From a bacterium BMS3Abin06 (GTDB lineage Bacteria > Nitrospirota > Thermodesulfovibrionia > UBA6902), in contig BDSY01000037.1 of NCBI GenBank assembly GCA_002897895.1, positions 7,306 to 71,305 of the forward strand: a DNA stretch of 64,000 bases, given 5' to 3'. A program made the position numbers and the translations under genes. The notes beneath the pieces were generated by a model. The model did no database searches, had not been told where the DNA came from, and saw nothing but the letters and a program-made list of their open reading frames with translations. Below are positions 6,667-25,237 of this stretch, one piece after another; the stretch's first letter is position 1; the number at the start of each line of letters is the position of its first letter.

Positions 6667-6667
6667 A

Positions 6668-7675: not shown

Positions 7676-7867
7676 ATTAAGATTTTTATCGTGTACTGCC
7701 GCGTTTTAAATTTTCCATATTCCCAGGCAATTATGCATTAACAGTTCTTACTTCTTCATCTCATAAAATATACCAATTCGACTGATTATGTTAACTTTGC
7801 GGCACATCTCTATGGCTTTTATATTTTGTTCCACAGTTATCTTTTCTGCATCAAGTCCAATAGTTTC

Positions 7868-9295: not shown

Positions 9296-9337
9296 AAGAA
9301 TTTCTTTAAAATAAATTACTACTGTTTACCTGTAGAG

Positions 9338-10711: not shown

Positions 10712-11013
10712 TTCAGCCTGCGTATACTGAAAAATACAGCCAGGGCAGAGGTAGCAATTAACAATATTATTACCACCTGTGCATCGAATCTTTTGTAACT
10801 ATAGGAAAACAGGATTAAGGTGCTGACAACTACTGCAGCAATTGCTGCTATGATAAAAAAGATATTAATATTTTTTGTGAGAGATATTAAGAGATAACTT
10901 CCTGCACAGATAAATAAACAGAGCAAAATTAAAAAAAGTAAGAAGTCCAGGCTAAACCTCCTCCGGCTCCGTCCCTGCTTCCTGTTTCTTGCCCGGCTTA
11001 TCCTCATATCCAT
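10708..11013 (-). CDS. small membrane protein
   Basis: Two hydrophobic helices and an Arg-rich N-terminus. It overlaps the wzc 3' end, so it may be spurious. Confidence 0.25.
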   Translation of the reverse strand: MDMRISRARNRKQGRSRRRFSLDFLLFLILLCLFICAGSYLLISLTKNINIFFIIAAIAAVVVSTLILFSYSYKRFDAQVVIILLIATSALAVFFSIRRLK

Positions 11014-13015
11014 ATTTATAAGTCTGGTAATAAGCGTAAGGCGCTACTGCCCTGGTTTTAAGGTTGATCTGATTCAGAACCACTCCCGAGATATCGGCGC
11101 CCACTGATTCTAACTGGATTTTAGCCCGCAAAAGGGCATTCCTGGAGATCCTGCCAATCTCATAACATAGAACAACACTATCTACCCTGGAAGCTAAAAG
11201 GCTGGCATCAGTTACCGGGAGCACAGGGGGCGAATCAAAGAAAATAATATCAAATCTTTCCTTCAGCTCTTCCATCAAGTCTGTCCACATTTTGGATTCC
11301 AGAATTTCCGCAGGATTAACAGGCAAATCTCCGCTGGGAAGAATCCATATATTTTCAATTCCGGGAGGCTTTTTTGTTATTTCGTCGAGTCCCATATCTC
11401 CCAATATAAAATCCGATATATTCCTGAGGGCATCTTCCAGGCTTACAGATCCTGATATAAGTTCAGTCAGTCCCGGCTTTTTCTTTGTGCCGAATGTCCT
11501 GGCAATTACCGGTCGTCTTAAGTCAGAAGAAACCAGAAGTGTTTTTGCGCCTGTCTGAGCCACAGCTAAACCCAGATTTGTCATAAGTGTGGTCTTGCCC
11601 TCCTCTGGCCCTGCGCTGGTCAGGAGAATTGTCTTTTTAGACGGGCCAAGTTTAAGATTGGTCCGAATATTACGACAGGCTTCAGCTACAGAAGATTTGG
11701 GCTGATGATGGACAATCAATCGCATATATGCCTCCTCAGCCTTTTTCCTGCTGATGTGTGAAATTTTCTCCCTGTATTTAACTTCTTTTTTATTAAGTTC
11801 GCTCCGTGCAGAAGGAACCACTCCCAAAACCGGCAATTTGACTACATTTTCTATATCTTCAATAGTCCCGAGAGAGGTATCCAGTGCTTCAAATACAAAA
11901 GCAAGGGCAATACCCAGCAACAATCCCATTATCCCCCCTATAAACACATTCATTTTCCCCTGTGTATCTATAGGTGAGGCGGGCATAACTGCAGGGTCAA
12001 CTATGGAAATATCTCCAACTTTCTGCGCCTCTGTAATACGCGCCTCCTCAAGTTTTTCCTTAAACATCATGAAGAGTTTTTTGTTGACTTCAACCTCACG
12101 AGCTAATCTGCCATATTCCAGCTTTTGTTCGGAAAGACTTTTCCTTCGCGCCTCTAAATCTTTGCTTTGTTTCTCCTGCTGCGCCTTTAAATCTTTGATC
12201 TGTTTTTCCTGTTTTGCCTCTAAATCCTTAACCTGCTTTTCATGCTTCGTTTCCAGATTTTTTATCTCTTTCTTAAGCCGCACTATCCGGGGATGTTTAT
12301 CAGTATATCTCTGAAGGAGGGCAACTAATTCAAATTTTAAATCTACTAATTTTTTCTGAATCGGTTCGAGCAACCTCATATTCATTACTTCATCTGTTTC
12401 ATTAACTTTTTTAATTTCATCCGCTTTGTCCATTTTTTCTTCAAATTTGCTCAGACGATCTTCTGCCTTTTCCAGCCTGCTTCCTAATATTGATAATTGC
12501 TCTTCAATAAACCGGCGGGCGCTGCGGGCCTGCCTGGTCTTTTCCAATAAGTTTTCTTCCACATAAACAGAAGCTGCAGCCTCGGCTAAATCCCTTGCCT
12601 CTTTGGCGCTGCTTGCAGAGGCAGTGATTCTGATAATATTAGTTCGTTCGATTCTCTCGGTTTCTATGCTGTTCTGTAAGTTATTTACTACTTTGTGAAT
12701 CTCCGGGGTGGGAGTCTTATCATTTATTATTCTCAGACGCAAGGCCACCTTTTTCATAATTGGAAATCCCCTGATTATCCTGGTCTGCGATTCCATTACA
12801 TTGCCGGGACTACTTATAATCCACTCTGTAAGCAATCCGGCTATGGTCTTGCGCTCTTCTATTTTGACTGTAGTGGAAGCTTTGTATATCAGGGGAGGCT
12901 GGGTAGAAAGGAATGCACTGCCAATAGTTACAAGAAGAAAGGTTATAATTATGGTAAATTTCCTCTTGTGAAAAATCCTTAAATAATCCCTTAAATTTAA
13001 TTCATATTGCGGCAA
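10952..13015 (-). CDS. wzc: polysaccharide co-polymerase fused to a BY-kinase (Wzc / GumC-like tyrosine autokinase)
   Basis: N-terminal Wzz domain with a transmembrane segment, then a long coiled coil (repeated KDLEAKQEKQIKDLKAQQEKQSKDLE). Walker A LTSAGPEEGKTT. Tyr-rich C-terminal tail YAYYQTYKYGYEDK. Confidence 0.75.
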   Translation of the reverse strand: MPQYELNLRDYLRIFHKRKFTIIITFLLVTIGSAFLSTQPPLIYKASTTVKIEERKTIAGLLTEWIISSPGNVMESQTRIIRGFPIMKKVALRLRIINDKTPTPEIHKVVNNLQNSIETERIERTNIIRITASASSAKEARDLAEAAASVYVEENLLEKTRQARSARRFIEEQLSILGSRLEKAEDRLSKFEEKMDKADEIKKVNETDEVMNMRLLEPIQKKLVDLKFELVALLQRYTDKHPRIVRLKKEIKNLETKHEKQVKDLEAKQEKQIKDLKAQQEKQSKDLEARRKSLSEQKLEYGRLAREVEVNKKLFMMFKEKLEEARITEAQKVGDISIVDPAVMPASPIDTQGKMNVFIGGIMGLLLGIALAFVFEALDTSLGTIEDIENVVKLPVLGVVPSARSELNKKEVKYREKISHISRKKAEEAYMRLIVHHQPKSSVAEACRNIRTNLKLGPSKKTILLTSAGPEEGKTTLMTNLGLAVAQTGAKTLLVSSDLRRPVIARTFGTKKKPGLTELISGSVSLEDALRNISDFILGDMGLDEITKKPPGIENIWILPSGDLPVNPAEILESKMWTDLMEELKERFDIIFFDSPPVLPVTDASLLASRVDSVVLCYEIGRISRNALLRAKIQLESVGADISGVVLNQINLKTRAVAPYAYYQTYKYGYEDKPGKKQEAGTEPEEV

Positions 13016-13027
13016 TAAGCTCCTCCC

Positions 13028-13861
13028 TTAATCCAGGGTCTCCAACCCATGCAATGTCCAAACCCCCTTGGCTATAGGAGAAAGTATCTGGTCAACATAA
13101 TAATTCACATCTGCAATGAATTTCTTGGGAACGTAAACCATATCCTCTGATTGCAGGGTAATATTTTGACTCATGTCGGTTTTATTTATGGCGCGGCTTA
13201 AGTCAAGCCTCATACCTTCAGGGGTCTGAAGTCCACCCCTGACAAGTATAACGCTGGAGGGAACGGCATGCGGCGTAAAGCCATTTGCCAGGGCAATAGA
13301 CTCTAATACGGTTCTTTTTCCACTAACAGAGTAAACCCCCGGCTCATTTACTTCCCCTAAAACAATGACCTTTTTACCTCCCATCTTTCTAAGTGAGATG
13401 GAAACTATAGGGTACCTGATATATTCGCTGAGTCTCTTGCTGAGTTCCTCCCTCAATTGATCAAAGGTCAAACAGAAAGCAGGCACTTCTCCGGCTAAAG
13501 GAAAAGATATTTTTCCATCAGGACGAACAATTACCTCCTGTCTGAGATCGGCTTCTTCCCACACAGATATATACAGCACATCTCCCATATCAATGGTATA
13601 GTCCGGAAACCCGGATTCCCCCTTGACGATAGTGGCTGTTTTCGCTTTTGCTTCCTCTGCATCACCGGCAAGTGTTTGAGTTACAAATAATGTTGTTATT
13701 AACAAAAAAACGGGAAGGACAATCATTGCCCAATTGGAAGGGAGTCTACATCCAAATCCAATTAGAGATTTATCTCTGAACGGGGCGAACTTCTTAACGG
13801 GGTTTGTAATATTTTCTTTGAAATTTTCCACTTCTCCCCCTACAATTTTGAAGTGATTCAT
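13028..13861 (-). CDS. wza: polysaccharide export protein Wza (Poly_export + SLBB)
   Basis: N-terminal transmembrane/signal segment. DVLYISVWEEADL and GEVNEPGVY motifs typical of Wza/KpsD periplasmic exporters. Confidence 0.7.
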   Translation of the reverse strand: MNHFKIVGGEVENFKENITNPVKKFAPFRDKSLIGFGCRLPSNWAMIVLPVFLLITTLFVTQTLAGDAEEAKAKTATIVKGESGFPDYTIDMGDVLYISVWEEADLRQEVIVRPDGKISFPLAGEVPAFCLTFDQLREELSKRLSEYIRYPIVSISLRKMGGKKVIVLGEVNEPGVYSVSGKRTVLESIALANGFTPHAVPSSVILVRGGLQTPEGMRLDLSRAINKTDMSQNITLQSEDMVYVPKKFIADVNYYVDQILSPIAKGVWTLHGLETLD

Positions 13862-13887: not shown

Positions 13888-14796
13888 TTGTATAATAGCT
13901 ACTTAAGCTTTTATTTCATGGTATATTATCAAGAAACGGAACAAATTAATCAAGTGAAATATATATTAGAAGTAGATGGACTGAGCAAGGATTTTATCCC
14001 TCCTCTCTCTTTCAGAAAATTGATCGGGCTTGATTTCAGGCACAGAAGGCAGACCAGGGCGCTTGAGGATGTTTCATTTTCCCTTAAGAAGGGAAAGATA
14101 CTTGGTGTTCTCGGGCCTAACGGAGCGGGAAAGACCACCCTTTTAAAGATATTAGCTACCCTCATACTCCCGGATAAAGGCAGCGTGCTTATAAACGGCT
14201 GGAGCGTCGGCATTGATGACAACAAAATCAAATCCCTTATCGGGTTGGTCTCCTCACAGGAGAGGAGCTTTTACTGGCGGCTTACCGGGAGGCAGAATCT
14301 TGAATTTTTCGCGCTTATGTATGATCTGGAAAATCCGGGAAACAAAATTGAAGAATTGTTTGACCTCTTTGAGATAGATTACCAGGACAACCGCTTTGAT
14401 TCTTACTCCACTGGAATGAAACAGAAATTCGCCTTAATGAGAGGGCTGCTCAATGATCCGGGGCTTCTGCTTTTAGATGAACCGACCAGAAGTCTGGATT
14501 ACACAACATCCCTGAATTTCAGGAATTTCATAAAAGAGAACCTGGTCCTGGAAAAAGGAAAGACGGTTGTCTTCACCTCCCACAACATGGATGAGGCCAT
14601 GCATTTTTGTGACATATTTATGATACTGCATAAAGGGAGGCTTTATGCCATGGGGACACTGGATGAACTGCGAAAAAAGATAAATAATCAAACTGCGTCA
14701 CTGGGTGAGATATTTGTAAAATTGACTGAAGGGGAAAGCTTGACAAGAAGTCAGAAGTCAGAAGTCAGGAGTCAGAAGAAAAAGAGAAAAAACTAA
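13888..14796 (+). CDS. ABC transporter ATP-binding protein
   Basis: Walker A GPNGAGKTT, signature YSTGMKQK, Walker B LLLLDEPT. The C-terminal tail is encoded by tandem AGTCAGA heptamers. Confidence 0.8.
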   Translation: MYNSYLSFYFMVYYQETEQINQVKYILEVDGLSKDFIPPLSFRKLIGLDFRHRRQTRALEDVSFSLKKGKILGVLGPNGAGKTTLLKILATLILPDKGSVLINGWSVGIDDNKIKSLIGLVSSQERSFYWRLTGRQNLEFFALMYDLENPGNKIEELFDLFEIDYQDNRFDSYSTGMKQKFALMRGLLNDPGLLLLDEPTRSLDYTTSLNFRNFIKENLVLEKGKTVVFTSHNMDEAMHFCDIFMILHKGRLYAMGTLDELRKKINNQTASLGEIFVKLTEGESLTRSQKSEVRSQKKKRKN

Positions 14797-14930
14797 ACAG
14801 TTTCAAGTTCCAAAGCAATTCTGGATTCTGGATTCTGACTCCTGGCTTCTTTATCGGATATCTTAATAATACCCTGTGAACTATTACAAAATAATTTGGC
14901 CCTTAGTGACTTTATGGCGGAGCAGTTTTT

Positions 14931-15737
14931 ATGTTGAAAAAACCATTGGCTTTTGTAAAAAAAGATTTTCTGGCCGAATCCAGCTATAAGCTCTCTTTTA
15001 TATTCAGGATTTTTTCTGTTCTGACAAGTATCCTGAGTTATTATTTCATTGATAAGCTCTTCGGCAGCAGAATGGTCGGATATCTGGAAGAATTCGGAGT
15101 AAATTACTTCTCATATGTGCTTCTGAGCACGGCCTTTTTCAGTTATGTAGGGGTGGGGTTAGGATCTTTCTCCGGCAGGATCCGCTCTGAACAAGTACAG
15201 GGAACACTCGAAGCCCTGCTCATGACTCCCACAAAGATTTCGACTATTTTATTCTCCATGTCCCTCTGGAATCTGCTCTTTGCAACCCTGAATATGGTCA
15301 TCTATCTTATGGCGGGTAAATATTTATTCAAGATCAGCTTTGACAATATAAATATATTATCCACCTTTGTGATATTGATTCTGACTATTCTCTCTTTCAG
15401 CAGCCTGGGGATACTTTCGGCAAGTTTCATTATAGTATTTAAACGCGGGAATCCTGTGGGCTGGGTAATAAGCAGTCTTGAGGGGCTAATCGGAGGAGTT
15501 TATTTCCCCATTACCGTCCTGCCGGTATGGCTGCAATTTCTGGCGAAATTTTTCCCTATCACTTATGCTATCAGGGCCATTCAGCTGGCGGTTTATAAGA
15601 ATTACTCCCTCACACAACTCACAAAGGAGACAGGATTTCTGCTGCTATTTTCTATCTTACTCCTTCCTTTAAGCCTTTTCTCATTTAAATATGCCCTCAA
15701 AAAAGCCCGCCGGCATGGAAGTCTTGTTCAGTATTAA
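14931..15737 (+). CDS. ABC-2 type transporter permease
   Basis: 268 aa, about 6 membrane helices, immediately after the ATPase. Confidence 0.7.
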   Translation: MLKKPLAFVKKDFLAESSYKLSFIFRIFSVLTSILSYYFIDKLFGSRMVGYLEEFGVNYFSYVLLSTAFFSYVGVGLGSFSGRIRSEQVQGTLEALLMTPTKISTILFSMSLWNLLFATLNMVIYLMAGKYLFKISFDNINILSTFVILILTILSFSSLGILSASFIIVFKRGNPVGWVISSLEGLIGGVYFPITVLPVWLQFLAKFFPITYAIRAIQLAVYKNYSLTQLTKETGFLLLFSILLLPLSLFSFKYALKKARRHGSLVQY

Positions 15738-16873
15738 AAAAAATTTCTGACTATTCTCCGGTAATAATGAAAAGCATTTATGTTAGACAAAGGAAGAGCA
15801 AAATTATGCCCCATTACATAAGGCGAGGGGAAAAGTGTCCTGCCCATAAAACTTAATTTACTGAAGAAACCTTTCTCCATGGAAAGATAAATAAGATAAG
15901 ACAGCCAATAATGTCTTACACCTTTACGCATAAAGAGGGAAAATATCCTGTCTGAAAGGCTGAACCCGGCGGGTTTTAATCTTTCCAGTTCGGGGATTTC
16001 AAAATTCAACAAGTTAGAGGCAAAAGAGAGGGAATAAAACAAGACCGGGGATAAATTAAATCTTTCTGCCTCCCCGACAACTAACTCATAGTCAAGCCTC
16101 TCTTTATAGTGTCTTAAGGTTTCTAAAATGTCGGCAAGTAAAATCAGCCTGTCAAAGGAGTGAGTAAGGCTGTGCTGGGATAAATAAATCAAAAGATGCT
16201 CCGGAGCTAAAGTCAATGCCTCAATTCCACCTATCCTCGTTGCCCGGGCACATGACCAGATTCTTTCCATATCAATTTTATTTACAAGAGAATCCAATGG
16301 CCAGGTGGTATTAATAAGATGCCAGTGAAGATGGACCACAGCGCCGGGGGTTTTTTTTAGATAAACAAGTGAATTTACAGGGGAAGGCGGAGCAATACTC
16401 AGAGCATCCCGGTGGTTTGTGGTTGCAAGAAATCCTGAGCTCTTCAGGATTTTATCGACTTCAGAAAGATCATCTTTCCTTACAAGAATATCAATATCTC
16501 CTATCGGCCTAAAGGCGATATTTTTATAAATATTTTCAGCCAGAAAAATTCCTTTAAGGACAATCGCCTTTATATTTTCTTCATTAAAGATTTTAAGTAT
16601 CTTTTTTGTCTCCCCGCTGATTATCATATTTCTGGCAGAGTTTCTGTGATAGTAATTTCTTAATTGCTCTAAATATTGGGAGGGGACATAGGCCTTGAAT
16701 TCAGAGTTGTTTAAATGATAATAGACCAGACAGGAAACCCCTTCATTCCAGGACTTTTCAAGAATATAATCCCAGTCCGGACGGGTTTTTAATAATTCCT
16801 CTATCCGGCTTATCTCATACTTATCCGGATTAAGCCGGGAAAAAAGAAAAATCAGCCTGTCTTCCTTTCGCAT
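15734..16873 (-). CDS. nucleotidyltransferase-family protein (NTP_transf_5-like), accessory gene of the RiPP cluster
   Basis: Probable start is the internal Met MRKEDRLIFLF, which abuts the upstream stop. DIDILV and HLHWHL motifs fit the uncharacterised nucleotidyltransferases common in RiPP loci. Confidence 0.5.
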   Translation of the reverse strand: MRKEDRLIFLFSRLNPDKYEISRIEELLKTRPDWDYILEKSWNEGVSCLVYYHLNNSEFKAYVPSQYLEQLRNYYHRNSARNMIISGETKKILKIFNEENIKAIVLKGIFLAENIYKNIAFRPIGDIDILVRKDDLSEVDKILKSSGFLATTNHRDALSIAPPSPVNSLVYLKKTPGAVVHLHWHLINTTWPLDSLVNKIDMERIWSCARATRIGGIEALTLAPEHLLIYLSQHSLTHSFDRLILLADILETLRHYKERLDYELVVGEAERFNLSPVLFYSLSFASNLLNFEIPELERLKPAGFSLSDRIFSLFMRKGVRHYWLSYLIYLSMEKGFFSKLSFMGRTLFPSPYVMGHNFALPLSNINAFHYYRRIVRNFF

Positions 16874-16875
16874 AT

Positions 16876-17502
16876 TCACCTGTGGCCTGGTGTCCTGGAG
16901 GCTGAAGGGAGGGATGCCTCGTTTACAAACAACCGGAAAGGCCGTTGGATTGCCCATTGGCTCCTGCCGGGCATCAGCCTGCCGATTACACGCCGTCCCA
17001 TAATCAAATGAAATTCCGTTCCGGCAGGCCGGTCAAAACAAAGAACGCGGGTTTGCATCCATGCGGGAAGCCATCGTCTGAGGACGTGTGTTTGAGCCAG
17101 CCTGTGATAGAGGGGGTGGAGCAAAGAGGATATTTTTAAATCTATCATACGGATGGCCCTGATTCCCGATGAGTATAACCGGCCCCTCACCCCCCCGTAA
17201 ATCAACCGCTGCCTGTTTCCCCGCTGCGCCCGGATAACACGCCCGACAATGCTCTCAGGTCTGAGAATCCACGGGTCAATATATCTACTTCTGTCCCCCT
17301 GGGTTCTGATCCCTGTAGCATCAACAGAGATAACCCGGTGGACAACCATTCGGTTGCTCTCAGGAGAGGGGAAAACAATCACATCTCCACATTGAATTTT
17401 TTTTCCATTGCAAGGTAATACATGGAGTATATCAGAAGCCTTCAGAGCAGGGTTCATGCTTGACCCTACGCAGACTATGGTTTTACAGGTATCACCGCTC
17501 AT
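16876..17502 (-). CDS. S24/S26-family (signal-peptidase-like) serine peptidase, candidate leader peptidase
   Basis: VCVGSSMNPAL matches the GDSMxP catalytic-Ser motif. A beta-rich core is followed by a basic C-terminal extension. Confidence 0.5.
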   Translation of the reverse strand: MSGDTCKTIVCVGSSMNPALKASDILHVLPCNGKKIQCGDVIVFPSPESNRMVVHRVISVDATGIRTQGDRSRYIDPWILRPESIVGRVIRAQRGNRQRLIYGGVRGRLYSSGIRAIRMIDLKISSLLHPLYHRLAQTHVLRRWLPAWMQTRVLCFDRPAGTEFHLIMGRRVIGRLMPGRSQWAIQRPFRLFVNEASLPSASRTPGHR

Positions 17503-17503
17503 A

Positions 17504-18391
17504 CTAAAGAACCTTCTCAATCTCATCCCTGAACCGTCCGTCACGACTTAAGCGAAGGATATATGCAGGAACAGCTCTTGCCAATTTGCAGGCATTGTCA
17601 AAAATTTTCTTCTTAATCTCGCCCTCTTCCTCAGCGTTCAGATTCCTCCAGATAGGACGACACACTTCTGTAGATGAACGATTGATAAATACCGCAGCCT
17701 GTCCCTGACCTATGGGAACTGCTTCCTCGGATTCTGCCTGTTCTATAAAAAATATTGCAGTGAGAGGAGCGCATCGCTCAACATTCCATCTCCGCTCCGA
17801 CTGCTGCCAGAGATAATCACTCCATGTGGGAATGGGATGGGCCAGATAGCCTTTGCGATCATCTCGGACAATGAGGCTCTGATCATCGCTCAGGGCATGC
17901 CACGAACGGGGAAGTCGCCGGCATAAGGTAGATTTCCCGGAACCTCCCGGACCGGCTATTAAAATACCCTTCCCGTCTATCTCAATAAGCGCTGCATGAA
18001 CCGGAAGCCCTCCTGAGTCCATCATTTGTAAATAGATGATATACAGTGATGTCCACATCCTTACGATATCTAATTCGTGACTGCACTCATCCCCGATTTC
18101 ACAGATGATGTCGGACACTGTCCGGTGGGACCAGAACCGGAGTGCCCGGAAATCATGAGACTTCCACCCGCTTTCCGGAAAGTTCTCATCTATCTCCGGA
18201 AACCCGTCTTTTCCCGCCCCCCTCCGGACGAAAAAAATCCCCGGACAATTGCTGCGCCTGTCCCGTCCATTAGCCTTCAGTTCCATAATCGCGGCAAACT
18301 TCTCCACCCACGATATAGTATCAAGGGTGGACTTGATGAGCCGGCCACTGCCGTTGCCCAGTTTTAACATGTAGGCGGGTTTGGTCATCAT
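17504..18391 (-). CDS. HPr-kinase C-terminal-domain-related protein (ScmC-like)
   Basis: P-loop GILIAGPGGSGKST in an HprK-like context. It sits next to two radical SAM/SPASM genes and a PqqD gene, as the SynChlorMet cassette protein ScmC does. Confidence 0.6.
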   Translation of the reverse strand: MMTKPAYMLKLGNGSGRLIKSTLDTISWVEKFAAIMELKANGRDRRSNCPGIFFVRRGAGKDGFPEIDENFPESGWKSHDFRALRFWSHRTVSDIICEIGDECSHELDIVRMWTSLYIIYLQMMDSGGLPVHAALIEIDGKGILIAGPGGSGKSTLCRRLPRSWHALSDDQSLIVRDDRKGYLAHPIPTWSDYLWQQSERRWNVERCAPLTAIFFIEQAESEEAVPIGQGQAAVFINRSSTEVCRPIWRNLNAEEEGEIKKKIFDNACKLARAVPAYILRLSRDGRFRDEIEKVL

Positions 18392-18404
18392 TTATATCTT
18401 AACC

Positions 18405-18794
18405 CTATTTCAATGGAAGCCCGAGGATTTGGCATTCTGCTTCTTTTAGCACCTCTGTCAGAGAGGGCGCTATTGAGTCGTATACTTTGTTTTCTATGTG
18501 TTTATGGTGAGGAAAAGAAGAAACAGATTTGTGATGGGGGGCATTATCGTATCGAAATATCTCCTGATCTTTGGAGTTCATAAATTGATACCTGTACTTT
18601 TCTCTGCTGACTGCCGTATTACTATATCTTAGAAACTCAAAAACAGAAAGTTTAGAGCCGTTTTGAAATAACACGAGAACCTCAATGTAACCTGTTGTTG
18701 AACTGGTCAGGGTTAATTGGAATTGATGGCTGATTACTACAGGGGATTTTGTCAGTGCAAGTTCAATATCCGCGGCGTATCGGCTAACCAACAA
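18405..18794 (-). CDS. hypothetical His-motif protein (HHK...HHKH), possible toxin-like partner of the upstream small gene
   Basis: 129 aa. Overlaps the upstream 83-aa ORF by 11 bp. Flanked by the direct repeat described in the findings. Confidence 0.4.
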   Translation of the reverse strand: MLVSRYAADIELALTKSPVVISHQFQLTLTSSTTGYIEVLVLFQNGSKLSVFEFLRYSNTAVSREKYRYQFMNSKDQEIFRYDNAPHHKSVSSFPHHKHIENKVYDSIAPSLTEVLKEAECQILGLPLK

Positions 18795-19035
18795 GAACCT
18801 CTTCTAATGCCCTTTTTGTGGATTTCCAGTCGGCTAATCCCTGAGCCACGGCATACCATTTAAAAAAAACCTCATCATCCCCTGCCAAACCATTGTCAAA
18901 TCTTTGAAGAAACTCATCAGTTGTCCAGTGATACTGTTCCTCAAACTCTTTACATAAGCTTTCCAGGTGGTCTATGGCAAAGATGCACGTTTCCTTTTCC
19001 CTCTCAAGAGAGCGTATTACCTCTGCTTTTATCAT
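18784..19035 (-). CDS. hypothetical small protein, possible antitoxin-like
   Basis: 83 aa, acidic and helical, translationally coupled to the 129-aa ORF. Confidence 0.35.
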   Translation of the reverse strand: MIKAEVIRSLEREKETCIFAIDHLESLCKEFEEQYHWTTDEFLQRFDNGLAGDDEVFFKWYAVAQGLADWKSTKRALEEVLVG

Positions 19036-19076
19036 CCTTCACCCCCTGTCTGTGATTATCTGATGTACAAAGTATA

Positions 19077-19379
19077 TCATCTGTGATATTTAAAAATAAA
19101 GGAAAAATCTTCTATCTCTTTGCCGGTTAAAAAGGGCGGTTTGCTCAGGAAACTGCGACTTTCTGCACGCCAATAATATCTGTTTTGGAAGATTCTTCGC
19201 CATATATTTTCAGGCAAAGTAGCAGCAAACTTCTCCACCCACGATATAGTATCAGGGGTGGATTTGATAAGCCGGCCACTGCCGTTGCCCAGTTTTAACA
19301 TGTATGCAGTTTTGGTCATTTTGTCTGCTATCCCCGGTTTTTGAGCGCGCCGATCATGTTCAATCATCAAGCAACCCAA
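19077..19379 (-). pseudogene. duplicated 5' fragment of the ScmC-like gene
   Basis: MTKTAYMLKLGNGSGRLIKSTPDTISWVEKFAA is nearly identical to the N-terminus of the 17504..18391 product. The DNA repeat is about 19219..19320 versus 18283..18388, roughly 92% identical. Sequence diverges after the repeat. Confidence 0.55.
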
Positions 19380-19423
19380 GATTTCCCATTACTTGCCACA
19401 GTAACTTGGCTTCCAACGCCTCA

Positions 19424-19627
19424 TTATTCATAACTTGCAGCAGTAATTCCAACAGACTCACACACACCTGCAGTGGCACTCGTGCCGTTTGTTATACAGT
19501 CAGCGCTGGCAGTACCCCCTGCCTGACAGTTATTACTGGCAGCGCTACCGCTCAGACAGTCCGCCCCCTCAGCCGACCATTCCTCTTTGCCTGATAATAC
19601 TACCAAGCAAGGCTTTTCATATTTCAT
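19424..19627 (-). CDS. candidate RiPP precursor peptide
   Basis: 67 aa with a charged leader MKYEKPCLVVLSGKEEW. The core is rich in Cys, Ser, Ala, Gly and Thr, with repeated A-D-C motifs (GADCLSG, SADCITNG, AGVCESVG). Same strand, immediately downstream of the two SPASM maturases. Confidence 0.55.
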   Translation of the reverse strand: MKYEKPCLVVLSGKEEWSAEGADCLSGSAASNNCQAGGTASADCITNGTSATAGVCESVGITAASYE

Positions 19628-19658
19628 ATTATCTCCTCCATATAAGCAAAATCATCCC

Positions 19659-20747
19659 TCAACTTTTCCTTGTCAAACGAGTCTCGGGAAAGAGACCCTT
19701 GCGGTTTATCTCCTCGCAGAACCAGAATGGCGCCCAGAGAGACTTGCTCAGGTAATAATTCTGGGCAACACAACTTCCGAGACAGCGGCTCTTCATAAGA
19801 CATTCCCCGCAAATACCCTCAAGTCGGCCGGGAAGTCCCTCCCGGAGTTCCTTAAGAACAGGGCTGTCGTCCCAGATATCCTTTAGGCGATCTGCTGCCG
19901 CATGACCAAAGACAAGCTCGGGCACTGTCTCTCCAATGCCACACATGGCATAAGAGCCGTCAGCCAGAACCCCGAGAATGCCGCGGATCCCGCAGATACC
20001 ACACCCACCTCCATTATTGCCGAACATCCTGGAAAGGGGGCGGAAGGCGAGCGGATGGGAGTAGTGAAGACGCAGTTTTGTCAAAGGAGAAAGAACCTTT
20101 TCCACCCATTCTCCTAATTCCACAAGCTCTTCAATATCGAGGGTCTGCCCTGCATCATGCATCTTTTCGCCTCGCGCAGTGGGCTGAAGGATATTGAATT
20201 TGACAGAACCGCAGCCAAGCGATTCAGCAAGGTGTACCACTGACTTCATCTGATCTTTATTACGCGACATGATAGTCATAATGACCTGAGGTCTGAAGCC
20301 GGCATTTACCAGATTTCGAATGCCCTCCCCGGCTGCCTCAAAACAACCCGAAACCCCGCGCATCCACTCATGGGTTTCAGCATCCGCTGCATCCAGACTC
20401 ACCGATACAAAGGGATTCTTACACGCAGCCATCTTGAGCGCCAGACCTTCCGTGCAAAGAAGACCATTGGTCTCTACGATGAGCCGGAGGTCATTGGCCC
20501 GAATCTCATCAAGGATTTCATGAATCTGAGGATGCAGAAGCGGTTCACCTCCGGTTAACTTGACCCCGGAAAGCCCCAGGGGCTTTGCCTGCCTGATTAT
20601 GGAGCGGAAAAGCTCCGGAGAAAGAGAAGGGTAAGAACTGCTCCCGCCCTGGTATCCCGGGTCAATCCAGCAATGACGGCAGCGAAGGTTACACCCCTCA
20701 GTCAGATAAAAGTAAATCTGATTCAGAGAAAATTTACGGTCATTCAT
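19659..20747 (-). CDS. radical SAM/SPASM domain peptide maturase (ScmF-like)
   Basis: CNLRCRHC (CxxxCxxC) radical SAM cluster. C-terminal SPASM cysteines (CGICGI..., CGECLMKSRCLGSC). Confidence 0.8.
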   Translation of the reverse strand: MNDRKFSLNQIYFYLTEGCNLRCRHCWIDPGYQGGSSSYPSLSPELFRSIIRQAKPLGLSGVKLTGGEPLLHPQIHEILDEIRANDLRLIVETNGLLCTEGLALKMAACKNPFVSVSLDAADAETHEWMRGVSGCFEAAGEGIRNLVNAGFRPQVIMTIMSRNKDQMKSVVHLAESLGCGSVKFNILQPTARGEKMHDAGQTLDIEELVELGEWVEKVLSPLTKLRLHYSHPLAFRPLSRMFGNNGGGCGICGIRGILGVLADGSYAMCGIGETVPELVFGHAAADRLKDIWDDSPVLKELREGLPGRLEGICGECLMKSRCLGSCVAQNYYLSKSLWAPFWFCEEINRKGLFPETRLTRKS

Positions 20748-20810
20748 TTTTTATTCTTTTATACATGACGACTTATAAAATTTCGCATAATATGAAATTC
20801 TCCCAAAGTC

Positions 20811-20872
20811 TGTCATGCCGGCTTGTCCGGCATCCTTCCTGGAAGAAAGATTCCCGACAAGCGGGAATGACA
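20811..20872. repeat. hairpin MITE (family A), solo copy
   Basis: tgtcatgccggcttgtccggcatc...gattcccgacaagcgggaatgaca, the same inverted-repeat arms as the GIY-YIG element at 41774..42180. Confidence 0.7.
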
Positions 20873-20934
20873 CAACATGCGCAATAATTTATGACGCTCT
20901 GTATAGTTATCCTGATTTATCCTGTTAATCCCGT

Positions 20935-22038
20935 CTAAAAACTCTCCTCAGGAAGCCTCCCGCCATCTTCAAGAAACCTTCTCAGACAGGCATCCGGACT
21001 GGGATGATTCTCCTTGCCCAAAGTCGTGTAAGCCAATGCAGGACAATTGCCCGCACAATAAGGGATGTAATCACACCCCCTGCAAAACTCAAAATCACTC
21101 AGGGGAATACTGCGCCGCTCCCTCAGCCGCTCCAGCTCCGGATGATCCTGCCAGACCTCTCTGAGATTATCATTCCTGATACAACCCAGTTCCATATGGC
21201 CCAACTGAATGCATGGGACCATGGCACCGTCAGCGCGCACCGCCATCTTATTCCCCGGTCCGCCGCAACCGGTGAGATAACCCCTCCCGGGAATGCCTTT
21301 CTTCCCTTCACGACGGGCTTGTTCCATTATCAACCAGTTTTTCGCCTCAGCCAAAGGACCTGCGTTAGCGCTGATGCGTCCCTTGTATTTTTTGTTAAGC
21401 TTCAAAAGGGTCTTCATGGCAAGGGTACGCTCTGAAACAGTAAGCTGGACCTCTTCGGCATTTCTCCGGCAAAGTCCCATAAAAGAGGCAGCGTTGGTCG
21501 AAAAAGACGGGAGGCCGAGAGACTCCAGTAACAACCTTGCTACACCCTCAAGATCATTTACATTCTGTCTATGAATGGTAACACGCACAGACACAGAAAC
21601 ACCGTGCTTTCTCAGATGCTCAATCCCCTCCATGGCCCTGGAGAAATTACCTTTACCCCTGAAGGCATCGTGCGCCATTGGAATTGAGCTGTCGATTGAT
21701 ACCTGCACTGTGTTACATCGTCCGGTGGAAGCCAGAAATGCCGCCATCTCATCAGTAATCAATGTCCCATTGCTCAGGATACTGAATCGCATCCGGTTGT
21801 GAACTATCCCTTTGATGAGCTCACGCAAATCCTTCCGGTAAAAAGGCTCGCCTCCCTGAATACAGACATTCATCACCCCGCAGCGATTTAATTCCTCAAA
21901 GAATTTAAGCCATTCTTCCATAGGAAGATCATGGCCTGTATCCCCGGCGCTTGTAAAATGGCTGCAGTATTTGCAGCGCAGATTACAGCGGTTTGTAATG
22001 TCCAGATCAAGAGACCTCGGGGTACTCATTACCCTCAT
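20935..22038 (-). CDS. radical SAM/SPASM domain peptide maturase (ScmE-like)
   Basis: CNLRCKYC radical SAM motif. SPASM cysteines CRGCDYIPYCAGNCP. Confidence 0.8.
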   Translation of the reverse strand: MRVMSTPRSLDLDITNRCNLRCKYCSHFTSAGDTGHDLPMEEWLKFFEELNRCGVMNVCIQGGEPFYRKDLRELIKGIVHNRMRFSILSNGTLITDEMAAFLASTGRCNTVQVSIDSSIPMAHDAFRGKGNFSRAMEGIEHLRKHGVSVSVRVTIHRQNVNDLEGVARLLLESLGLPSFSTNAASFMGLCRRNAEEVQLTVSERTLAMKTLLKLNKKYKGRISANAGPLAEAKNWLIMEQARREGKKGIPGRGYLTGCGGPGNKMAVRADGAMVPCIQLGHMELGCIRNDNLREVWQDHPELERLRERRSIPLSDFEFCRGCDYIPYCAGNCPALAYTTLGKENHPSPDACLRRFLEDGGRLPEESF

Positions 22039-22044
22039 AAAATG

Positions 22045-22350
22045 TTACCCCTTTTTAACCTCGTAACCGGCCAACCCCCGTTCGGTTAAACTCCGGATAA
22101 AATCCTTAAGATCATCCTCAGCCTCATCGGGTATGTTCTCACAGCTCTCCCGCAGCTTTTCAAAAATGTCTTCCATCGTATGTGATCCGTCAAGCAGCTT
22201 CCAAATGAGTACACCTACAGGATTAAGACCGAAAGCATCCCCGGCATCAGGGTCAAAAAGGATTGCCCAGTCATCAAATTCCTCCCGAAGTACTATTAAC
22301 GGATTGGCTACAGGCATCTCTTTTTCTCCTGTTCCCATCTCTTCCCTCAT
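22045..22350 (-). CDS. PqqD-family RiPP recognition element protein
   Basis: AILFDPDAGDAFGLNPVGVLIWKLLDGSHTMEDIFEKL is a classic PqqD/RRE profile. Confidence 0.75.
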   Translation of the reverse strand: MREEMGTGEKEMPVANPLIVLREEFDDWAILFDPDAGDAFGLNPVGVLIWKLLDGSHTMEDIFEKLRESCENIPDEAEDDLKDFIRSLTERGLAGYEVKKG

Positions 22351-23372
22351 TCCTGTAAAACCTTTTCAATATAAACAGCCTGCTGTTTCCTTAAATCTAC
22401 AACCCTCTTATCTTTCAATTTCCGGTTATCACGGTCATACATTATATTAATTACAGGACGCGTAGGAAACCCCCGGTTAATTTTGGCAACCCTGCCTCTC
22501 TCTTTAGTGTTTAACCTGACAAGGCTTCCCATAGGGTAAGCGCCTATTACTTCCAGCAAAATCTTTATCAATTTATATTCAAAAGCCTTCTTTGCCTTTG
22601 ATAATTCCCGTATCGCGTCCATGGACATATACTTGTCACGATACGGCCGTGAATGGGTCATGGCTTCATAGCTGTCTGCCAGGCCCACTATTGCGGCATA
22701 TTTATGAACGGCTTCTCCCTTTAGCCCGTGAGGATAACCTGAACCATCCATGCGTTCATGTTCCTGAAGCGCAACCCGGACAGCTATTTCAGGCAGTTCC
22801 CTTGCTCTTTCCAGAATATCCGAACCGGTTTCCGGATGATTTTTGATTTCATTAAATTCTTCGGCGGTTAATTTCCCCGGCCGGTTGGCTAAATCCATAT
22901 ATTTTATCATTCCCATATCATGCAAAATAGCCGAGCTCCCTAACTCCATTAATTCAGCTTTATCATACCCAAGCCCTATACCTGTTTTTATAGATAAGAT
23001 ACAGACATTTACTTCATGGCTGTAGAAATCATGCTGTATTGAGCCTGTAGTTAATTCCAGCAAAGACTCATTATCCATGATCAATTGTTCAACTAACCTG
23101 TCTACACAGGATATGATCGACTTACATTCAAGTACATCATTATTTAATGCCTTTTCTTTTATCTCTTTCAGCAGAGATATTGCCTCTCTGTAAATTTCTG
23201 CGCATTCTTCCTTATTTAATACCCTGCCTCTCTCCATTACTACCGGAGCAATCCTGACTCCGGATCTGCCCGGTTCCCCGGGGACTTCCTGTTTTTTAAC
23301 TTTCGCCGGCCGGCGCTGTTGGAGGGACTCCTCTTTCTTAACTCCTTTTAAGATATCTGATATATTGACCAC
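22347..23372 (-). CDS. HD-GYP domain phosphodiesterase (c-di-GMP)
   Basis: HDMGMIKY and HHERMDGSGYP motifs. Confidence 0.75.
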   Translation of the reverse strand: MVNISDILKGVKKEESLQQRRPAKVKKQEVPGEPGRSGVRIAPVVMERGRVLNKEECAEIYREAISLLKEIKEKALNNDVLECKSIISCVDRLVEQLIMDNESLLELTTGSIQHDFYSHEVNVCILSIKTGIGLGYDKAELMELGSSAILHDMGMIKYMDLANRPGKLTAEEFNEIKNHPETGSDILERARELPEIAVRVALQEHERMDGSGYPHGLKGEAVHKYAAIVGLADSYEAMTHSRPYRDKYMSMDAIRELSKAKKAFEYKLIKILLEVIGAYPMGSLVRLNTKERGRVAKINRGFPTRPVINIMYDRDNRKLKDKRVVDLRKQQAVYIEKVLQE

Positions 23373-23385: not shown

Positions 23386-24216
23386 CTATCCTCTTATTTG
23401 GGCAGACCCAACAGGGATCTCTTCGAGGTCTTCAGCAACTTCCCTTATTACACCCCTGTTAACTTTATCCAGGCCTTCTGCAGAACCTACCAGCAGGGCC
23501 ATATCACATATATTGTTTATCCTTCGCGGTGTGCCTGCGGAATAACGGTAAATCTCCATATGTACATCTTCTGAAAATATCTCCTGCTGCGAGCCTGCCA
23601 TCTTTAAACGGTGCCGGATATAGCGCCCTGTCTCATCCTCCGTAAGAGCGCCGAGATGATACCTTACGGCAAACCTCTGTTTAAACTGAGGCAAATTATC
23701 TATTTTCTCTTTCAGCTCGGGTTGGCCCAGCAGTATAAGGGTAAGGAGGAAATCATCATTTAACTGAAAATTCAAAAGGAGCCTCAGTTCTTCAAAACTG
23801 TTTTTATGGCCTATGGTCTGGGCTTCATCTATAACTATAACCGTACCTTTATTATTATTTCTGTTTGCGTATAGAATCTCATTGAAATAATGCAGGAGAT
23901 TGATTTTGGATGAAGATGATATCCTGCTGTCCAATTGATAGACAATCTCTTTCATAAGGTTCAGAGGCGACAGCCTGGGATTAAAAATAAAGGCCAGTTG
24001 GTATTGTTCAGTGTTGAGCTCTTTCAGAAGAACCCTGCTTAAAAGGGTTTTTCCACAACCGGGTTCACCGGTTAAGATTGCCGCCCCTTTTCTTTCCCTG
24101 ATAGCATAAAGCATTCTTGAGAGCGCTTCTTCGTGTTTCCGTGAGTAGTAGAAAAAATGCGGGTCCGGTGTATTCTCAAATGGCTTCTGCTGTAATCTCC
24201 AGTATTCTTCATACAT
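23386..24216 (-). CDS. ExeA/GspA-like AAA+ ATPase
   Basis: Walker A GEPGCGKT, Walker B VIVIDEAQ, and the ExeA-type overall layout. Confidence 0.6.
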   Translation of the reverse strand: MYEEYWRLQQKPFENTPDPHFFYYSRKHEEALSRMLYAIRERKGAAILTGEPGCGKTLLSRVLLKELNTEQYQLAFIFNPRLSPLNLMKEIVYQLDSRISSSSKINLLHYFNEILYANRNNNKGTVIVIDEAQTIGHKNSFEELRLLLNFQLNDDFLLTLILLGQPELKEKIDNLPQFKQRFAVRYHLGALTEDETGRYIRHRLKMAGSQQEIFSEDVHMEIYRYSAGTPRRINNICDMALLVGSAEGLDKVNRGVIREVAEDLEEIPVGSAQIRG

Positions 24217-24406: not shown

Positions 24407-25237
24407 CTAAAACGCATATGTCAGATTAACGACCCCAACCATAACCAGGGTCTTGCTCCAGGGGAAAACAGTATCTATTATTTTGCCGCTTTGTGTCATA
24501 TCCGGCTTTATTTCACTCTCATCAAGCTTAACAAGTTTATAACTGCCGCCTAAAGAAAGATTGATATTTCTTGTAATTTCACGCGCTACGCCGACACCTA
24601 TATCCAGACAGGTGCCGTTAGTGTCAAACCACATTCCTTCGTTATTGCTGTTTCTCACATCACCGTCAAAATAATAAGCAAAAGCAGCCCTTCCATCAAT
24701 GGCCCATTTGCCGGGCTTATACCCGAGACCAAGACCTCCGGCGGTTTTCCACAAACTGAAATCCTCGGTAATTGTAGCAGTAGACAGAGCAACGCCGTTT
24801 ACGACAAAATTTTTTCTCCTGAAATGCAGACCGTCCCATCCTCCTGATACATAAAGCCTGTAGTAAAAATTATTAAGACTGTTTCTGTAACCCAGACTGA
24901 TGTCGTAGAATTGACCAAAAATACTTATATCATTTGTTTGCTTCTCTATGTTATCTTCTCTCCATTTCTCTACATCCTTTAATCCAAGCGCCCAGTCGGT
25001 CGTGAATGCGGCAAAAAAGTTTTTCAGCCCGGCAAAAGAATACTCCCCCGAGACACCTAAGAGAATTGTGTCAAGAGATGTTTCCGACTCAATTTCGGTT
25101 CCAAAGGCATCGGTATCCTCCTCATATTTGATAACGCCGTAACCGCTGTGCACCCCAACTTCAAAACTGTCTGCATCAACATCACCTCCGATAAGAAAAA
25201 CAATTAAGGCAACAATCAGAAGAGCGATTTTTTTCAA
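24407..25237 (-). CDS. outer-membrane beta-barrel protein
   Basis: Signal peptide MKKIALLIVALIVFLIGGDVDA. Alternating beta-strand pattern and a C-terminal aromatic residue (LTYAF). Confidence 0.5.
   Translation of the reverse strand: MKKIALLIVALIVFLIGGDVDADSFEVGVHSGYGVIKYEEDTDAFGTEIESETSLDTILLGVSGEYSFAGLKNFFAAFTTDWALGLKDVEKWREDNIEKQTNDISIFGQFYDISLGYRNSLNNFYYRLYVSGGWDGLHFRRKNFVVNGVALSTATITEDFSLWKTAGGLGLGYKPGKWAIDGRAAFAYYFDGDVRNSNNEGMWFDTNGTCLDIGVGVAREITRNINLSLGGSYKLVKLDESEIKPDMTQSGKIIDTVFPWSKTLVMVGVVNLTYAF

Follow-up and report, generated by a model that had tools for sequence, protein, structure and literature searches.

An intact SynChlorMet cassette with a cysteine-rich precursor peptide in a bacterium BMS3Abin06 of the Nitrospirota

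The window, a stretch of 64,000 nucleotides from contig BDSY01000037.1, carries on its minus strand, from 22350 to 15734, an intact copy of the SynChlorMet gene cassette, in which every core protein scores above the curated NCBIfam cut-off. The order of genes is scmD, scmE, scmF, the precursor gene and scmC, followed by genes for a peptidase of the S26 type and a nucleotidyltransferase (NTP_transf_5) (Table 1). We read the locus as a RiPP maturation cassette, and assign to the proposed pathway as a whole a probability of about 0.6.

The cassette and its enzymes

The first-pass annotation, made without database searches, had listed in this strand a PqqD protein, two radical SAM/SPASM enzymes separated by a repeat, a 67-aa ORF, a toxin-antitoxin-like insert, an HprK-related protein, a peptidase and a nucleotidyltransferase, and all these ORFs are present in that order and at those coordinates. 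Its match of the core set to the Scm cassette was borne out by the HMM searches, as ScmC, ScmD, ScmE and ScmF are equivalog-level matches. The genes are adjacent and co-oriented, in the usual D-E-F-A-C order of the SynChlorMet families (TIGR04248 to TIGR04252 for ScmD, ScmC, ScmE, ScmF and ScmA, respectively; Pfam PF27840 for ScmC). The locus differs from these models in the precursor, which falls below the ScmA cut-off, and in the addition of the S26 peptidase, the nucleotidyltransferase, a toxin-antitoxin insertion and a repeat element.

Table 1. Features of the cassette and its surroundings (window positions)
Feature	Position	Strand	Evidence
HD-GYP-type (HD_5) protein	22347..23372	-	PF13487, 82.9 bits
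scmD, stand-alone PqqD-type peptide chaperone (RRE)	22045..22350	-	TIGR04248, 135.1 bits (cut-off 100); PF05402, 58.9 bits
scmE, radical SAM/SPASM enzyme without N-terminal RRE	20935..22038	-	TIGR04250, 644.8 bits (cut-off 400)
REP/BIME-like palindromic repeat pair between scmE and scmF	20811..20873 (about)	.	23-nt unit
scmF, second radical SAM/SPASM enzyme	19659..20747	-	TIGR04251, 615.4 bits (cut-off 400)
scmA-like precursor, 67 aa	19424..19627	-	leave-one-out profile, E 1.4e-10
Remnant ORF with duplicated scmC 5' end (19231-19319)	19077..19379	-	89-nt repeat
Inserted toxin-antitoxin pair	18405..19035	-	TumE toxin 18405-18794; TumA-like antitoxin 18784-19035
scmC, P-loop phosphotransferase, HprK/PEPCK fold	17504..18391	-	TIGR04249, 293 bits (cut-off 125)
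Soluble S26-type (Ser/His) peptidase	16876..17544	-	sigpep_I_arch, 54.7 bits (cut-off 51.85)
NTP_transf_5 nucleotidyltransferase, putative accessory tailoring enzyme	15734..16957	-	PF14907, 170.3 bits (cut-off 31)
ABC ATPase (13888-14796) and ABC-2 permease (14931-15737)	13888..15737	+	ABC_tran, ABC2_membrane match

The SynChlorMet gene set is widespread and is known from database models alone. The statement that it is defined only by HMM families holds, with the addition that a curated precursor model, TIGR04252 (ScmA), also exists. Our literature searches for "SynChlorMet" and the TIGR accessions found no paper mentioning them, in line with the earlier remark that the product has never been characterised. 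The cassette considered here is located within an exopolysaccharide locus, and among the related loci, too, it is found repeatedly inside such loci.

ScmE and ScmF both have the CxxxCxxC motif at residues ~17-24 (CNLRCKYC, residues 17-24, in ScmE) and a complete SPASM motif, and neither has an N-terminal RRE. Their nearest solved relatives are the peptide-modifying enzymes SkfB, PqqE and CteB (SkfB and PqqE in the case of ScmE), the thioether-forming SkfB being the closest to both. ScmF is 70-82% identical to homologues from other phyla. In ScmC, the conserved residues are H132, GK[ST] and D169-D170, with both the Walker A motif and the Asp-Asp pair intact, while the HprK, HprK_rel_A and HprK_rel_B models give this protein just 22-34 bits.

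The peptidase and the nucleotidyltransferase had also been assigned to the cassette at first pass, and both have family-level matches, but no Scm-specific model matched either of them. The peptidase barely attains the sigpep_I_arch cut-off and remains under that of Pfam S26 (21.2 bits, cut-off 22.9). It shares the boxes of Ser/His type I signal peptidases (archaeal/ER type, SipW), that is, G-x-S-M-x-P, H-R and G-D..D, conserved here as G27-x-S29-M-x-P, H69-R70, G83-D84 and D90. Unlike these enzymes, it has no membrane anchor, no transmembrane segment being predicted, and it has an extra conserved C-terminal domain of ~110 residues. Judging by its genomic setting, it is likely a cytoplasmic RiPP leader peptidase. 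The nucleotidyltransferase has conserved D154 and D156, and its true start may be Met29 at 16873.

In 28 non-redundant related loci, ScmDEF are accompanied by the precursor (23/28), the S26 peptidase (23/28) and ScmC (21/28). Each extra precursor comes with its own ScmC, the ScmCs of one locus being 38-52% identical. The nucleotidyltransferase is present in only seven of the 28, with the same gene order in L022/L023 and L026.

The precursor peptide family

The Cys-rich 67-aa ORF, proposed earlier as the precursor, is a real precursor and not a chance ORF. A leave-one-out profile, built from 45 cassette-adjacent peptides with the window peptide excluded, was run against the 1407 stop-to-stop ORFs in the window and matched it alone (the next best E-value was 1.5). 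The ORF has a GGAGG ribosome-binding site 8 nt upstream, and its position is the same as in the 23 related loci with a precursor; a small cysteine peptide with a conserved leader, whose lack in related genomes had been named at first pass as a ground for refutation, is found there beside the cassette. Its exact sequence was not found in the protein collection, hence the ORF was never called as a gene. The match to TIGR04252 is weak (15 bits, E 0.022, cut-off 35 bits), and all 45 other cassette-adjacent precursors tested likewise fall under the cut-off, so the ScmA model is too narrow, missing both the window peptide and all these relatives.

The peptide consists of a leader, MKYEKPCLVVL..AEG, containing the family element K-Y-E-K-P-x-L-x-x-L, and a core of four C-x-x-G-x-x-A-x3 units, with four of its five cysteines in the core. 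Unique relatives adjoining cassettes number 51. In the leader of the family, Pro is conserved in 100%, Tyr in 90% and Leu(+8) in 82%. The cores vary widely in length and sequence, and the only near-invariant positions are Cys and Gly(+3): Gly at C+3 is seen in 70% (background 21%), Ala at C+6 in 38% (background 10.5%), and the Cys-Cys spacing is 9-11 in 172/292 intervals. The number of cysteines per core ranges from 1 to 17 without an even-number bias, and single-Cys cores occur; hence each Cys unit appears to be modified singly and not paired with another Cys. Most precursors have a small-x-Gly motif 1-5 residues ahead of the first core Cys.

Inserted elements and flanking genes

The scmE-scmF gap of 187 nt contains an element described previously as a MITE. 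The element is indeed there, but it comprises two 23-nt hairpin units in inverted orientation, closer in appearance to a REP/BIME element than to a classic MITE. The unit, GTCATTCCCGCTTGTCGGGAATC, has eight matches in the window, against zero expected. A promoter-like site is located at the repeat, and so is a hairpin resembling a terminator.

The toxin-antitoxin-like insert noted at first pass is a TumE/TumA-like pair. TumE scores 78.6 bits with Pfam (cut-off 23.4) and 79.2 bits with NCBIfam (cut-off 90), and the TumA match is weak, 23.3 bits (cut-off 100). By tblastn, neither had a match in any of 62 related loci. The insertion stands between the precursor and scmC. The remnant ORF beside it contains a direct repeat of 89 nt that shares 93% identity with the scmC 5' end at 18300-18388, and its translation (MTKTAYMLKLGNGSGRLIKST..) matches the ScmC N-terminus.

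The ABC genes, reported earlier as divergent, are in fact convergent with the cassette, with stop codons overlapping at 15734-15737. The ATPase resembles DrrA-like ATPases, with a score of 197.6 bits that is under the cut-off. The pair is a possible exporter of the cassette product; an ABC ATPase is found near the cassette in 12 of the 28 loci, which is only modestly above possible chance proximity. At the other end, the HD-GYP gene upstream is translationally coupled to scmD, its stop codon and the scmD start sharing 4 nt (ATGA), and the two are possibly co-transcribed; HD-GYP homologues adjoin the cassette in L018 and L056.

The proposed pathway and its alternatives

In the pathway we propose, the 67-aa ScmA-like precursor would be bound at its N-terminal leader K-Y-E-K-P-x-L-x-x-L by the chaperone ScmD and handed to ScmE and ScmF, which have no recognition domain of their own. 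Each repeat unit (C-x-x-G-[S/T/N]-x-A-x3) would be modified by them once, most likely through a bond from the sulfur of its Cys to a carbon of another residue close by in that unit, to yield a row of small thioether rings, four in the window peptide. ScmC would then phosphorylate Ser/Thr of its own cognate precursor, and the nucleotidyltransferase may decorate the phosphate. Leader removal would fall to the S26 peptidase, which would cut at the conserved small-x-Gly motif shortly ahead of the core's first Cys (..S-A-E-G / A-D-C.. in the window peptide, the slash marking the putative cut), and export may be through the ABC transporter encoded next to the cassette. A possible precedent for the ScmC and nucleotidyltransferase steps is provided by PsmK, an HprK-family kinase that phosphorylates a lasso peptide precursor and requires an Asp-Asp pair, and PsmN, an uncharacterised nucleotidyltransferase that adds hexose to the PsmK-made phosphate (PMC6993621).

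The chemistry of the two radical SAM enzymes is a point of doubt. Radical SAM/SPASM enzymes have other outcomes as well, among them epimers and cross-links of the C-C or C-O kind, and which reaction takes place cannot be predicted from similarity over the full length (PMC10288494). Neighbours in NCBIfam at similar scores are of very diverse chemistry (WgkB, AhbD, NirJ, PqqE, MftC, StsB). Besides, thioether formation leaves the need for two enzymes unexplained, while two different enzymes suggest two different reactions. Epimerisation, C-C or C-O cross-links or Cys oxidation in place of thioether formation, or else cysteines that serve as metal ligands or are modified later, is nevertheless an unlikely description of the cassette, given that near-invariance of only Cys and Gly(+3) is the pattern where Cys is the donor, and that SkfB is a thioether enzyme. 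Lanthionine-like rings, made by ScmC phosphorylating Ser/Thr in each unit, elimination of the phosphate and addition of Cys to the dehydro residue, with a separate role for the radical SAM enzymes, would fit the intact kinase site, the one-to-one pairing of ScmC with precursors and the frequent Ser, Thr or Asn at C+4 and C+5. However, HMM searches found no lyase or cyclase homologue in the cassette, Ser/Thr occupies C+4 in just about 39% of units, and the best-conserved enzymes would be left roleless, which makes this route very improbable.

Two further readings concern the locus itself. The terminator-like repeat splits scmE from scmF and the toxin-antitoxin insertion with the scmC remnant splits the precursor from scmC, hence expression of the cassette may be disturbed here. 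That these insertions broke the operon and left a decaying or silenced copy is, however, improbable: all cassette ORFs are full length with intact catalytic residues, ScmF is 100% identical on six contigs, and the repeat holds the promoter-like site as well. As for housekeeping radical SAM enzymes beside a spurious ORF, weak similarity to AhbD, NirJ, PqqE and MoaA is the only hint. Those models give 60-135 bits (cut-offs 265-650), against 615-645 for the Scm models (cut-off 400). All four core proteins are far under the cut-offs of models for sulfatase maturases and for PQQ, heme and Moco enzymes; sulfatase maturases and PQQ/Mo-cofactor enzymes had been raised at first pass. Given these scores, the conserved precursor family and its unique match in the window, we rejected this reading.

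Returning to the RiPP cassette with thioether formation, several known systems are partly similar. Sactipeptide and ranthipeptide systems (SkfB, AlbA, CteB, PapB, StsB) also apply SPASM enzymes to leader-bearing Cys precursors, and the repeated short Cys units resemble freyrasin-type precursors. However, in the Scm cassette the RRE is encoded apart from the radical SAM enzymes, of which there are two, the C-x-x-G-x-x-A motif differs, the cross-link here is a predicted one, and the PapB, StsB, SkfB and AlbA models give only 64-100 bits (cut-offs 300-850). The PQQ system likewise combines a SPASM enzyme without RRE, a PqqD chaperone that stands alone and a small peptide whose leader has a K-P-x-[hydrophobic] element, but the PqqE and PqqD models score 111.7 (cut-off 381) and 26.9 (cut-off 46), and the Scm core is variable, unlike a cofactor precursor. 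Lasso clusters with PadeK/PsmK and PsmN have an HprK-like P-loop enzyme with the essential Asp-Asp pair and an uncharacterised nucleotidyltransferase, and in these RiPP clusters, too, an ABC exporter and a protein of the PqqD type are encoded alongside (PMC6993621). On the other hand, the Scm locus has no lasso cyclase or B2 peptidase, and the Scm precursors lack the conserved C-terminal Ser used by lasso kinases.

The locus is a further member of the known, uncharacterised SynChlorMet kind, and its product, as far as the sequences suggest, is most likely a small cysteine-cross-linked peptide.

Family assignment of the cassette genes

All open reading frames of the first-pass annotation were found at their coordinates on the minus strand (see the table). 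The proposed SynChlorMet (Scm) identity of the core set was checked with curated NCBIfam HMMs, and four proteins score above the cut-offs: the radical SAM/SPASM enzymes ScmE (TIGR04250, 644.8 bits, cut-off 400, full-length match at residues 6–363) and ScmF (TIGR04251, 615.4 bits, cut-off 400, residues 7–358), the HprK/PEPCK-fold enzyme ScmC (TIGR04249, 293.5 bits, cut-off 125) and the stand-alone PqqD-type chaperone ScmD (TIGR04248, 135.1 bits, cut-off 100). The window ScmF and ScmC have 100% identical database entries, named as Nitrospirae/Nitrospirota, and the database copy of ScmC is annotated with PF27840 (ScmC). Four out of five model tests and the gene order place the window locus in the Scm cassette family. 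The family itself is already known and experimentally untouched, and the window copy is a further member. Literature searches for "SynChlorMet", for TIGR04248–TIGR04251 and for ScmA, ScmC or ScmD together with radical SAM gave nothing relevant, and two surveys of radical SAM RiPPs do not mention the Scm system (PMC10288494, PMC10114670), in agreement with the earlier statement that its product is uncharacterised.

Both radical SAM proteins match PF04055 and PF13186 and contain CxxxCxxC at residues ∼17–24 and the complete SPASM cysteine pattern; neither leaves space at its N-terminus for a recognition domain. Among solved proteins, their nearest relatives are SkfB, PqqE, BlsE and CteB. A housekeeping identity of these enzymes is rejected, since the scores of the respective NCBIfam families, 60–135 bits, are far below the cut-offs of 265–650: PqqE 111.7 vs. 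381, AhbD 135.5 vs. 500, NirJ 114.9 vs. 515, MoaA 85 vs. 325 and MftC 103 vs. 265.

Positions of features in the window, followed by two regions from related loci
Feature	Position	Strand	Remarks
EPS locus	277–13861		GT4 glycosyltransferases, methyltransferases, B12-binding radical SAM protein, flippase; further genes: O-antigen-ligase-like, Wzc-like kinase, Wza-like exporter
B12-binding radical SAM protein	1337–2902		in the EPS locus
Scm cassette	22350–15734	−	scmD, scmE, scmF, precursor, scmC, S26, NTP_transf_5
NTP_transf_5 ORF	15734–16957	−	from the first ATG; alternative start Met29 at 16873
89-nt direct repeat of the scmC 5′ end	18300–18388, 19231–19319		93% identical copies
TumE toxin	18405–18794	−	TA module 18405–19035
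TumA-like antitoxin	18784–19035	−	TA module 18405–19035
scmC remnant	19077–19379		ORF
Precursor	19424–19627	−	67 aa
scmF–precursor gap		−	31 nt; GGAGG 8 nt before ATG
23-nt repeat unit	20849–20871, 35260–35326, 36830–36852, 41819–41841, 42157–42314
scmD–scmE gap		−	6 nt
HD-GYP-type (HD_5) gene	22347–23372	−	ATGA overlap at the junction with scmD
XrtA-type ATPase-like gene	23386–24216
Promoter-like match	24273–24244		11/12
276-aa ORF	24407–25237
Housekeeping genes	from 25381
Locus L020, double module	16847–21101		coordinates of L020
Loci L009/L042, region with poly-Gly precursor	5732–6451		coordinates of L009/L042

The nucleotidyltransferase was identified as PF14907 NTP_transf_5 (170 bits), with D154 and D156 retained. 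If the first ATG is used, its ORF and the S26 gene have 82 nt in common; the alternative start is situated just past the S26 stop and fits the database relatives of 379–381 aa. The S26 peptidase just reaches the cut-off of the archaeal-type signal peptidase I model sigpep_I_arch (54.7 bits, cut-off 51.85) and keeps the catalytic boxes, but falls short with Pfam S26 (21.2, cut-off 22.9). The conserved boxes, G-x-S29-M-x-P, H69-R70, G83-D84 and D90, are those of the Ser/His type, and there is a conserved C-terminal domain as well. The catalytic Ser is among the first ∼30 residues, and no membrane segment is predicted in 22 homologues (maximum Kyte–Doolittle 19-residue mean 0.68–1.54). We read this protein as a putative cytoplasmic leader peptidase.

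The precursor peptide and its family

The cassette genes were mapped on 62 related loci. In almost every locus reaching far enough, a small ORF is situated directly after scmF and directly before scmC, and 51 unique cassette-adjacent peptides were gathered from these loci. They share the leader [K/R]-x-x-Y-E-K-P-x-L-[I/V]-[D/N]-L, with a conservation of 100% for Pro, 90% for Tyr and 82% for the final Leu, followed by a spacer of 8–12 residues and a Gly-, Ser-, Thr-, Ala- and Asn-rich core with 1–17 Cys and many N-x-S/T triplets. The position C+3 is occupied by Gly in 70% of the Cys units (background 21%) and C+6 by Ala in 38% (background 10.5%), and the Cys–Cys spacing is 9–11 in 172 out of 292 intervals. 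The window peptide follows the same pattern: the leader MKYEKPCLVVL and the spacer precede CLSGSAASNN, CQAGGTASAD, CITNGTSATAGV and CESVGITAASYE, with four core Cys.

As including the window peptide would make the search circular, it was excluded from the profile. This leave-one-out profile matches exactly the 67-aa ORF suggested initially as the precursor and no other of the 1407 stop-to-stop ORFs in the window (E = 1.4e-10, the next best 1.5), thus confirming it as the true precursor; with a profile of the leader only it again ranks first (E = 0.0024). Direct tblastn of the peptide against the related loci gave no match at E 1e-3, hence a profile HMM is required for detection of the precursor.

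A curated precursor model, TIGR04252 (ScmA, 49 positions), is already present in NCBIfam. The window peptide scores 15 bits (E = 0.022), below the cut-off of 35. Out of 46 cassette-adjacent precursors, 13 are found at E ≤ 0.05 (best E 8.6e-07) and none at the cut-off, therefore the ScmA model is narrower than the family. A collection of ∼15 billion predicted proteins has no exact copy of the 67-aa sequence. A profile search retrieved only 14 relatives, all unnamed or "hypothetical". Thus the precursor family is known in principle but unannotated in practice.

Some precursors are atypical. In the Verrucomicrobiota cassette of L009/L042 the precursor is upstream of scmD, and long poly-Gly runs (∼65 residues) separate its first Cys unit from the remaining ones. 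Loci L049, L051 and L060 contain a subclass of long precursors (117–131 aa, 12–17 Cys, with CC and C-x-C pairs), arranged in arrays of up to four precursor–scmC pairs, with two scmF copies per locus; scmD was not seen in the fetched stretches of these three loci. The closest relatives of the window ScmF (∼80% identity), from L001, L024 and L025, are accompanied by short precursors, often as tandem copies, whose core has just one Cys (C-x-N-G-S-L-P). These short precursors suggest that a substrate needs no more than a single C-x-x-G-S unit.

In most precursors a small-x-Gly motif is situated 1–5 residues ahead of the first core Cys. Ser/His peptidases of the S26 class follow the −3/−1 rule, and the motif fits this rule. 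The predicted cut in the window peptide would be after S-A-E-G.

Cassette composition, insertions and the proposed chemistry

Co-occurrence was counted in 28 non-redundant loci, each 6 kb or longer. ScmE is present in 25 loci, and ScmC and ScmD in 21 each. The precursor occupies the same position in 23 of the 28, so that a small Cys-containing peptide is indeed conserved beside the cassette. The S26 peptidase is also found in 23, which makes it effectively a core member. The ABC ATPase is present in 12 loci, and NTP_transf_5, a common accessory, in seven; the order scmC–S26–NTP_transf_5 of the window recurs in L022/L023 and L026. Among anaerobic bacteria the Scm cassette is widespread, with ∼940 ScmC clusters at 50% identity; culturable carriers include Syntrophobacter fumaroxidans, Chlorobium limicola and Desulfomonile tiedjei.

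In loci with several precursors every precursor is followed by its own scmC; L051 has four such pairs, and further ones occur in L049 and L020. The ScmC paralogues of these loci are only 38–52% identical, whereas ScmF is 53–82% identical across phyla, and the cassette radical SAM enzymes are unusually well conserved (70–80% identity across phyla). The pairing of divergent ScmC proteins with a conserved ScmF suggests that ScmD, ScmE and ScmF would recognise the conserved leader and a simple Cys unit, and ScmC the variable core. In L020, NTP_transf_5, another two PqqD genes and a sulfotransferase come after two precursor–scmC–S26 modules, which hints at additional kinds of tailoring.

The window cassette has been subject to insertions, in spite of which all its genes are intact. 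The element between scmE and scmF, initially called a MITE, is indeed a repeat element, although it resembles REP/BIME sequences rather than a clear MITE: the gap contains two inverted copies of a 23-nt palindromic hairpin unit, GTCATTCC[C/G]GCTTGTC[C/G]GGAATC, which occurs eight times in the window (0 expected), singly or as inverted pairs 15–35 nt apart. The copy in the scmE–scmF gap has terminator-like and promoter-like matches, which carry little weight, as the counts in such scans are near those in shuffled sequence. The presumed TA insert between the precursor and scmC consists of TumE (78.6 bits with the Pfam model) and a weakly matching TumA-like partner, neither of which has a tblastn match in any of the 62 related loci. 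It is flanked by a direct repeat of the scmC 5′ end, hence the additional ORF there is a remnant of scmC. A target duplication made by a transposase would be far shorter than this repeat. An attenuator downstream of the precursor was considered and rejected, as RNA folding yields no stable hairpin (z = −0.08).

In sactipeptides the Cys sulfur is linked to the alpha carbon of the acceptor residue, and in ranthipeptides to the beta or gamma carbon. The Scm system resembles both in having radical SAM enzymes with SPASM domains and a Cys-containing core peptide, but its maturases score below the cut-offs of PapB (88 vs. 340), StsB (100 vs. 625), SkfB (80 vs. 300) and AlbA (64 vs. 850). With the kinase–nucleotidyltransferase module of lasso clusters it shares an HprK-family kinase, ScmC, having Walker A and the catalytic Asp-Asp pair. 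However, an HMM search found neither an Asn-synthetase-like lasso cyclase nor a B2 peptidase among the ten window cassette proteins, and the Scm precursor C-termini are not conserved, the window peptide ending in S-Y-E instead of the C-terminal Ser of the lasso type. Similarly, the S26 protein keeps S29, H69 and D84/D90 of type I signal peptidases but, by hydropathy, lacks their N-terminal membrane anchor. In its predicted chemistry, Scm would function as sactipeptide or ranthipeptide systems do, with tailoring of the lasso kind, but it belongs to no characterised maturase family.

From the observed parts list, motifs and co-occurrence we infer the chemistry, targets and order of steps. ScmD would bind the precursor leader, after which ScmE and ScmF would modify every Cys unit separately, an intra-unit thioether being the most likely product; independent modification is proposed because the number of Cys per core is not preferentially even and some cores have only one. 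In the lasso cluster with PsmK and PsmN, the Asp-Asp pair is essential in the kinase PsmK, and the nucleotidyltransferase PsmN is needed for hexose addition to the phosphate (PMC6993621); by this precedent, ScmC would phosphorylate its cognate precursor. S26 would then cut off the leader, and a transporter would export the product.

Association with exopolysaccharide loci

In the window, the Scm cassette is nested in an exopolysaccharide (EPS) locus. In L056 the same neighbours (Wzc-like, Wza-like, XrtA-type ATPase-like and HD-GYP) surround a cassette with a 53% identical ScmF and another gene order. L005, L006, L011, L032 and L055 likewise have Wzc-like or Wza-like genes at their flanks. Overall, EPS genes are found near six of the 28 loci and an HD-GYP homologue in two. 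All PEP-CTERM/XrtA models are below their cut-offs, so we call the locus EPS-type and withhold the PEP-CTERM label. The ABC ATPase and permease genes, described initially as divergent, are in fact convergent with the cassette; ABC linkage was rejected as proof of export, since its frequency is not clearly above chance.

The HD-GYP-type gene follows the XrtA-type ATPase-like gene, upstream of which the best promoter-like match of the region is situated. These genes, of regulatory and EPS type, may share a transcript with the cassette. The interval from the XrtA-type ATPase-like gene to alanine dehydrogenase contains an ORF of 276 aa with a hydrophobic stretch at the N-terminus, for which neither Pfam nor NCBIfam gives a match. 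The best matches of the B12-binding radical SAM protein are the P-methyltransferase and RiPP radical SAM (ApyD) families, all below cut-off.

One reading of these surroundings is that the Scm peptides are not antibiotics: cross-linked, phosphorylated and possibly sugar-decorated, they would serve production of EPS or the biofilm matrix. We consider this unlikely, at roughly one chance in eight; it draws on the nesting in the EPS locus, the neighbours in L056, the EPS genes near other cassettes and the Gly/Ser/Thr/Asn-rich cores with their N-x-S/T triplets. The peptide could be a signal feeding c-di-GMP turnover via the translationally coupled HD-GYP protein, or, alternatively, a primer or anchor for polysaccharide build-up.

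An orphan radical SAM RiPP family as such would not surprise a specialist, but the Scm system is large, well defined and ready for tests, and it would define a new RiPP class if its chemistry proves to be new. The present analysis adds a precursor that has no annotation in the searched protein collection, a precursor family defined far more broadly, the inclusion of the S26 peptidase in the core set, one ScmC per precursor and the repeated association with EPS loci. The curated ScmA model needs widening, as it misses every precursor considered here. The precursor gene, the leader and repeat motifs and the predicted cleavage site provide starting points for experiments, and the recurring link to EPS loci hints at a role beyond antibiosis.
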